A stretch of DNA of 64,000 nt. Source: Eledone cirrhosa (taxonomy: Eukaryota). Shown here piece after piece: positions 49,447 through 49,650 of this stretch (the first letter of the stretch is position 1; each line of letters starts with the position of its first letter). The notes beneath the pieces are model-generated. The model had not been told where the DNA came from. It searched no databases and worked only from the letters and a program-made list of their open reading frames with translations. The position numbers and the translations under genes were made by a program. The DNA lies in the NCBI GenBank assembly GCA_964016885.1, contig OZ024747.1, forward strand, positions 64,356,001 through 64,420,000, written 5' to 3'.

Positions 49447-49450
<4 letters not shown>

Positions 49451-49650
49451 CATAATAAACAATACCATATAATTAATCCCTTACCAAATTATTTCAGGAA
49501 ACTAGACGATCTTTAATGAAAGGTCTAGTTTGCTGAAACATTTGTTAATGGAATAATTATATTGTGTTATTTATTACGTAATTAAATAGCTCTGTACTAA
49601 ACAGAGCACTCTTCTTTCCTTTACCTTTTCTACAGAAATACTTAACATAT
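49447..49650 (+). mobile_element. Miniature fold-back copy of the 3' terminus of the 53.8-57.6 kb PLE family
   Basis: Imperfect palindrome 49447-49583. GAAACATTTGTTAATGGAATAATTATATTG resembles GAAACCTCTGGTAATGAGGTAATTATATTG (57561). Tail GCTCTGTACTAAACAGAGCACTCTTC resembles the reverse complement of 53788-53863. Confidence 0.7.

Follow-up and report, generated by a model that had tools for sequence, protein, structure and literature searches.

The element described here lies in a 64-kb window, by which we mean the whole stretch of DNA that was analysed. It forms a palindrome of about 200 bases (49448–49646) within a TA microsatellite, carries a 64-nt tail on one arm only, and is referred to below as the mini element. 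On its left is the (TA)n tract that formed the target site (48880–49447, from the sequence, with an approximate start), and on its right a short (TA)n tract (49647–49659) lies ahead of the tail of a neighbouring insertion, PLE-1; that both flanks are (TA)n bears on any target-site duplication. The inverted repeat spans 49447/49448–49582, with 80% identity over 140 columns (E = 9e-29), and its fold of −57.6 kcal/mol (z = −9.3) was matched by 0/200 shuffled sequences. The arms were delimited by self-match and by alignment to PLE-2, a longer insertion in the same window. The short arm (49448–49515, minus strand) repeats the end of a Penelope-like element (PLE) in inverted orientation and stops where the short arm of PLE-2 stops (57607). 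The long arm comprises a portion common to the short arm (49516–49582, plus strand) and the one-sided tail (49583–49646, plus strand), which contains a hairpin of the form RCTC-YR..YR-GAGY (49589–49607, plus strand) that lacks the 2-nt bulge of other copies. Between the outer arms (49499–49507 and 49523–49531) there is a 15-nt spacer (49508–49522), located where loop II of a hammerhead ribozyme would sit. The spacer consists of three bases, shown as two dots in the original prediction, followed by CTTT-AATG-AAAG (49511–49522), the palindrome centre falls at 49515–49516.5, and GAAAC begins at 49535, so that the centre does lie just 5′ of GAAAC, as had been claimed.

Downstream of the spacer is a leftover of the stem II 3′ strand (49523–49534, plus strand, by alignment to PLE-2), followed by the 3′ half of a type I hammerhead (49535–49557, plus strand), consisting of GAAAC, a decayed stem III and cleavage triplet, and the stem I 3′ strand. 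The CUGANGA half is absent: a scan of the mini element gave no match to this core on the sense strand at up to one mismatch, and a single chance-like match on the opposite strand, in the tail. GAAAC or GAAAT is retained in both arms, and stem III is at most 2 bp and differs between them. From known hammerhead structure, the lack of the CUGANGA half means that the mini element would not cleave itself alone. In short, this is an inverted 5′-truncated copy, joined head to head, with a palindrome at the junction, and its assignment as the head-to-head end of a PLE can be made with high confidence. It is not a non-LTR retrozyme, as it has neither head-to-tail tandem units nor a complete hammerhead, and it is not a MITE, as the 64 nt at one end are unmirrored and match a retroelement tail. 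No second copy was found within the 64-kb window. We see the mini element as likely to be an aborted insertion, not a new element.

PLE-2 (53788–57607) is a 3.8-kb head-to-head insertion in (TA)n, centred near 55668, with a tail on the left arm only and arms that are 94% alike over 2081 columns. The left arm has a complete type I hammerhead (53889–53967, minus strand) with a 10-bp stem I, a core bearing U4C, an 11–12-bp stem II, a 13-nt loop and a 3-bp stem III. A second copy lies at 57506–57582 (plus strand); stem I forms 10/10 pairs in the left copy and 9/10 in the right. This hammerhead was the top-scoring of 11 descriptor matches in the window, where shuffles give 0.25 matches at a score of 12 or more, and it was not detected by Rfam. 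We read it as three stems around a hammerhead core, and thus as a predicted ribozyme. An alternative reading with a long stem III was dropped after the 10-bp stem I was found. The bulged tail hairpin of PLE-2 is at 53837–53857 (minus strand). The coding remnant is a C-terminal endonuclease fragment (55683–56168, plus strand, one in-frame stop) with a CxCX5C linker that reads CSCRVKSEC; by eye, CxxC and CxH are present and CCHH is absent. Two of 127 candidate proteins matched the ORF remnant, each laid out as RT plus C-terminal endonuclease (P0001, E = 3.9e-13; P0002, E = 1.4e-10). PLE-2 is truncated ahead of the RT, and the homologue P0001 carries RWK and DKS, where the Hydra clade has RWK and DKT. 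Pfam gave no GIY-YIG match and no informative match for the PLE-2 protein, so the GIY-YIG name rests on motifs and homologues. The marks of the Hydra clade are a CxCX5C linker, no CCHH, CxxC and CxH motifs, (TA)n targets and canonical hammerheads (PMC8557442), and the predicted endonuclease of PLE-2 has the signatures of this clade. The PLE-2 junction (55640–55690) combines repeated CTTATATC units with a short inverted repeat, which suggests slippage during joining.

Several other features surround these two insertions. PLE-1 (49660–51291) is a head-to-head insertion with arms identical at 699/707 positions, a CCHH-type endonuclease (Neptune- or Nematis-like) and hammerheads at 51091 (plus) and 49928 (minus). 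It has no Hydra-type tail hairpin, and its 135-nt coding spacer continues the tail-less arm. A related end is found beyond it at 51315–51383. An inverted pair with a 140-nt spacer occupies 45220–45840, and its left arm ends inside the very long loop II of a complete hammerhead-like motif at 45499. The segment 46508–46694 holds one isolated hammerhead of canonical minimal form, to which Rfam gives 29.1 bits as Hammerhead_1 where the gathering score is 34; it has a tail hairpin and runs up to a TA tract. The 150 Rfam matches listed, of 388 over the window, were microRNA-like hairpins plus a viral UTR; every one of them fell short of its gathering score and none was taken as real. A SINE-like repeat of about 190 nt is present in at least 10 copies (2286–2495, 6093–6287, 23874–24056, 30192–30583, 41966–42498 and others), with an inverted pair at 41966–42498. 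ORF pieces at 31969–32424 and 33712–34293 (minus strand) resemble, by their motifs, Helitron helicase and Rep fragments. At 51793–52119, 112-nt inverted arms (95%) surround a TA tract beside a SINE piece, possibly representing a MITE.

The mini element was compared with PLE-2 in several ways. Global alignment of its right arm and tail to the reverse complement of 53788–53923 gave 95 identical bases of 121 aligned, and BLAST gave 77% identity over 100 columns (E = 6e-12). Local scores against PLE-2 were z = 16.4 for the right arm, 7.6 for the left arm and 7.4 for the tail alone, each reached by 0/1000 shuffles. The original prediction that the two share a diverged 3′ ribozyme half and a terminal tail thus holds, with the alignment it proposed to 53788–53967 significant over 53788–53923; the remaining 53924–53967, the ribozyme 5′ half, has no counterpart in the mini element. 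Both insertions also show the same asymmetry, in that the mini short arm ends at the PLE-2 short-arm end and the long arms have a matching extra tail. Across 60 positions in the portion common to the arms, the two mini arms and PLE-2 agree at 40; a further 8 have the arms agreeing where PLE-2 differs, 8 differ between the arms and 4 are gapped. Because 8 of the 56 ungapped sites unite the arms against PLE-2, the mini element derives from a sister subfamily rather than from shrinkage of a PLE-2 copy: its proposed kinship with the PLE-2 family stands, and direct descent from PLE-2 does not. The same site comparison suggests that it is older than the present PLE-2 copy.

With respect to the hammerhead, the mini palindrome is centred 18.5–20 nt 5′ of GAAAC, and loop II of PLE-2 covers 13–25 nt before GAAAC with its centre at 19, so the two centres agree to about 1 nt. 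The mini spacer has no significant similarity to the PLE-2 loop (z = 0.5 and 1.1; 378 and 185 of 1000 shuffles), and the coincidence with loop II therefore rests on distance and on 12–13 nt of the stem II 3′ strand. The stem II region also contains the most stable 40-nt fold in the last 142 nt of the PLE-2 right arm. By eye, the mini centre resembles stem II of Hydra-1_Obim; the PLE-2 alignment covers far more. For this copy, then, the proposed fold point at stem II is confirmed, and it likely has a plain explanation, as a native hairpin where a stalled cDNA folded back.

Whether stem II is a junction hotspot was assessed from the seven tiny fold-backs of the mini type in the window, which compare with a single long one of the same type in 64 kb. 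Left out of this count were PLE-1 and PLE-2, with junctions in an ORF, the pair at 45375 (140-nt spacer), and other palindromes at 132, 11842 and 18216. Two of the seven, or three at most, centre in stem II, two centre elsewhere, and those at 36841 and 37328 have no resolved ribozyme. In stem II lie the mini element, centred 19.5 nt before GAAA and placed against a native reference, and the fold-back at 25580, centred 11 nt before GAAA, with a typical G-C closing pair but no native reference. The complex copy at 36560 is centred 17 nt before GAAA, and what looks like stem II there duplicates its own stem III region in inverted orientation; the core is the centre of another inverted repeat. Two lie outside stem II: the fold-back at 3601, centred 51 nt before GAAA at the stem I 5′ edge with the whole ribozyme retained, and that at 11204, centred 3′ of the cleavage site. 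Those at 36841 and 37328 were considered as stem II folds and rejected, their GAAA-like words being much nearer the tail hairpin than the 49–70 nt of the resolved copies. If each copy is assumed to have a chance of 0.10–0.20 of falling in stem II, two or more of five resolved copies gives p = 0.08–0.26, and three of five, if the complex copy at 36560 counts, gives p = 0.009–0.058, with the caveat that GAAA near any palindrome centre mimics stem II by construction. From 2/5 or 3/5 resolved fold-backs in one window, stem II as a junction hotspot is a lead, not a result. The families concerned have one copy each, save a three-copy family (11112–11244, 25529–25706, 36540–36704) with three different junctions (11204, 25580 and 36560), which speaks against fixed replicating miniatures. 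All seven fold-backs centre 20–113 nt from the tail hairpin. Inverted junctions also fall on short inverted repeats at 11204, 36577 and 55655–55668, and the junction spacers at 3601 and 11204 are 0–1 nt.

Some further observations concern individual palindromes. A very young fold-back at 3497–3790 has 104/104 pairs, a 1-nt loop, a complete hammerhead in each arm and a palindromic stem III, and its arms meet at the stem I 5′ edge. The junction at 11204 is no more than about 9 nt away from where cleavage is predicted; that copy could come from a cleaved template. The segment 36540–36592 looks like two successive fold-backs. Palindromes at 45–225, 11823–11862 and 18130–18303 were not assigned to a family, and those at 36800–37030 and 37282–37470 have the tail hairpin. 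Stem/loop II at 3616–3651, 45506–45552 and 57523–57560 is far longer than in published Hydra ribozymes; earlier template switches may have extended it.

The tail hairpin recurs, mostly with a 2-nt bulge and only slightly beyond the short terminus, at 3714, 25640, 36640, 36892, 37378, 46605 and 49589 (plus strand) and at 53857 (minus strand). Counts lean in the motif's favour because it was drawn from the same tails: 7/12 tails have an RCTC..GAGY that begins no more than 16 nt from the short terminus, compared with 164/13124 background stretches, and unique sequence contains 9 instances of the fuller motif with the 2-nt bulge, compared with 1.85 in shuffles (maximum 6, 40 shuffles). The seven tails, from five families, are those of the mini element, PLE-2 and the fold-backs at 3601, 36841, 37328, 25580 and 36560; among the 12 tested, the hairpin was missed in those at 11204, PLE-1, 45375, 132 and 46514. 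The fuller bulged motif is also present 70 nt behind the single hammerhead at 46514. As an independent check, inspection by eye of the published Hydra consensuses (PMC8557442 file S7) found the hairpin exactly in 3/6: Hydra-2_Amil and Hydra-2_Ajap have it in their tails, Hydra-1_Ajap at its 5′ start. Hydra-1_Crog has one mismatch, and the hairpin was not seen in Hydra-1_Amil or Hydra-1_Obim. The hairpin here is nearly identical by eye to that of Hydra-2_Ajap (PMC8557442). MAFFT alignment of the tail hairpins was poor. The word 'hairpin' is absent from the main text of PMC8557442, and our literature search, which was thin on subscription papers, returned no description of a Hydra tail hairpin and no junctions placed at stem II. 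The recurrence of the hairpin strengthens the predicted tie between the tiny fold-backs and an element with a GIY-YIG-type endonuclease. The hairpin is a candidate binding site for the element's protein.

The mini element belongs to a kind already described: it is the end of a Hydra-clade element, small and decayed, in head-to-head form. Inverted 5′-truncated copies with a one-ended tail are published for PLEs, and Penelope-13_HM is listed with a 5′-truncated inverted copy (PMC8557442), like the one seen here. With the Hydra-clade PLEs of Craig et al. 2021 (PMC8557442), the insertions share the (TA)n target, the 3′ type I hammerhead and, in PLE-2, CxCX5C, CxxC and CxH without CCHH. They differ in that the mini element lacks an ORF and has half a ribozyme only, in tails of 64–79 nt compared with the 30–40 bp given for PLEs, and in the long stem II and U4C of PLE-2 (PMC8557442). 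Inverted pLTRs of Adineta vaga Penelope elements (Arkhipova et al. 2013, PMC3846280) are likewise head-to-head, with a junction palindrome, an optional one-sided tail and proposed self-priming; those elements are long, with pLTRs of about 200 bp, and the available text of that paper says nothing on where the junction lies with respect to a ribozyme. Opposite-strand pairs of minimal hammerheads (Cervera and de la Pena 2014, PMC4209133) are short head-to-head PLE ends 100–700 bp apart, like 3497–3790, but keep two whole ribozymes, whereas the mini element is cut inside the ribozyme and would escape a hammerhead descriptor. The PAc Poseidon element in vitro (Frangieh et al. 2024, PMC11167929) has two termini bounding the tail, a stem-loop at the start region and dispensable cleavage; it belongs to another clade, and the study, in its accessible parts, is without inverted junctions. 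Non-LTR retrozymes (bioRxiv 10.64898/2026.07.22.740005) are also small, non-coding, PLE-derived and hammerhead-related, but are head-to-tail tandems with complete ribozymes, in contrast to a head-to-head element with half of one. The available portion of PMC6431247 holds nothing relevant. Pattern scans returned 33 metagenome loci and 1 viral locus, then 7 viral and 4 prokaryote loci, 0/45 of which extend beyond the pattern or encode a relative, and 16 candidate relatives of P0001 in viral contigs yielded 0 confirmed.

From the homology to PLE-2, the one-sided tail, the loop II junction, the lost ribozyme 5′ half and the Hydra signatures of PLE-2, we infer a route in which the mini element arose in one aborted insertion, the new cDNA having snapped back on the stem II hairpin of the hammerhead and copied itself; we put the probability of this at roughly 0.5. 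The family endonuclease would nick the (TA)n tract, and reverse transcription would start at the far end of the tail on uncleaved RNA. The enzyme may then have stalled in stem II after about 130 nt, where the cDNA end could pair with the other stem II strand and so prime synthesis on itself. At the near terminus, which lies a few bases before the tail hairpin is reached, the self-copied strand would be attached to the target, and later decay would amount to about 7% per arm. The ribozyme would thus act in the origin of the mini element as a hairpin, not as a catalyst. In favour of snap-back, besides the stability of the stem II fold and the inverted repeats found at other junctions, the mini centre matches loop II although stem II of PLE-2 is much longer than the 3–10 bp listed for Hydra ribozymes (PMC8557442 file S2). 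The mini element retains sequence 5′ of the cleavage site, which fits unprocessed RNA as the main template, as reported together with normal insertion of ribozyme mutants (PMC11167929), and palindromes at inverted junctions have already been interpreted as self-priming (PMC3846280). Against it are the single mini copy and the dissimilarity of its spacer to the PLE-2 loop, as well as the fact that self-priming was placed on an antisense RNA template, not on cDNA (PMC3846280). The 135-nt coding spacer of PLE-1 is colinear with the tail-less arm, so a single tail-end snap-back is insufficient there without later deletion, and the fixed end site of the short arm is not accounted for by snap-back alone.

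The main rival is a route with two cDNAs. One cDNA per nicked target strand, primed at the two reverse-transcription start sites and both stopped in stem II, would anneal through their complementary strands and be filled in to give a palindrome, explaining two differing ends without an extra cut. A Poseidon-clade protein nicks and extends both strands and is a predicted dimer, with two start sites bounding the tail of the element (PMC11167929), and the PLE-1 spacer, belonging to the arm without the tail, favours either this route or later deletion. However, both cDNAs must stop at a nearly identical place, the junctions with 0–1-nt spacers (3601 and 11204) are simpler as one snap-back, and the in vitro basis comes from a different clade; we regard this route as possible, though rather unlikely. 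Stem II matters as an inverted repeat in both routes, with cleavage uninvolved. The position at loop II might instead be fortuitous, with severe 5′ truncation confining junctions to roughly the terminal 100 nt, or with the later loss of the middle of a longer palindrome. The 20–113-nt spread of the seven fold-backs from the tail hairpin, the two of five resolved copies clearly outside stem II and the p values of 0.08–0.26 agree with this. A central deletion is seldom so symmetric, however, and the fit of the mini element to the loop centre to about 1 nt, together with the lower p values obtained if the complex copy counts, makes chance improbable.

If the hairpin itself were a replicating unit, a non-autonomous miniature family with a fixed fold at stem II, this would suit the presence of seven tiny fold-backs to one long one in 64 kb, the subfamily-level differences from PLE-2 and the retention of the tail hairpin, a candidate cis signal. 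Such a family is very doubtful given the lack of a second mini copy in the window, the three differing junctions of the three-copy family, the tail at one end only and the lack of a complete ribozyme. Palindromes beside microsatellites are a common artefact of libraries or assembly, but the mini arms differ at 8/56 sites plus indels and the short arm ends at the family terminus, so an artefactual fold-back can be given hardly any credence. Overall, an aborted insertion that snapped back on stem II remains our preferred reading.

The origin of inverted Penelope-like structures is a named open question in PMC8557442, and the tiny fold-backs are the shortest record of the step in which such structures form. 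Junction position and spacer orientation over many copies could separate snap-back from the joining of two cDNAs, for which one decayed copy is insufficient. Taken jointly, and quite tentatively, the data would fit a picture in which stem II of the Hydra clade is the main stop-and-join site of reverse transcription, the ribozyme shaping insertions as a hairpin and not by cleaving. The (TA)n tracts would then fill with palindromes of 150–300 bp that are missed by hammerhead and ORF searches, and the bulged hairpin of the tail, whose conservation extends from coral and sea cucumber to the present genome, would bind the protein and set the two termini. For the Hydra clade, the tail hairpin offers a concrete candidate for a cis element, and it can serve as a marker in finding the clade's non-coding remnants.
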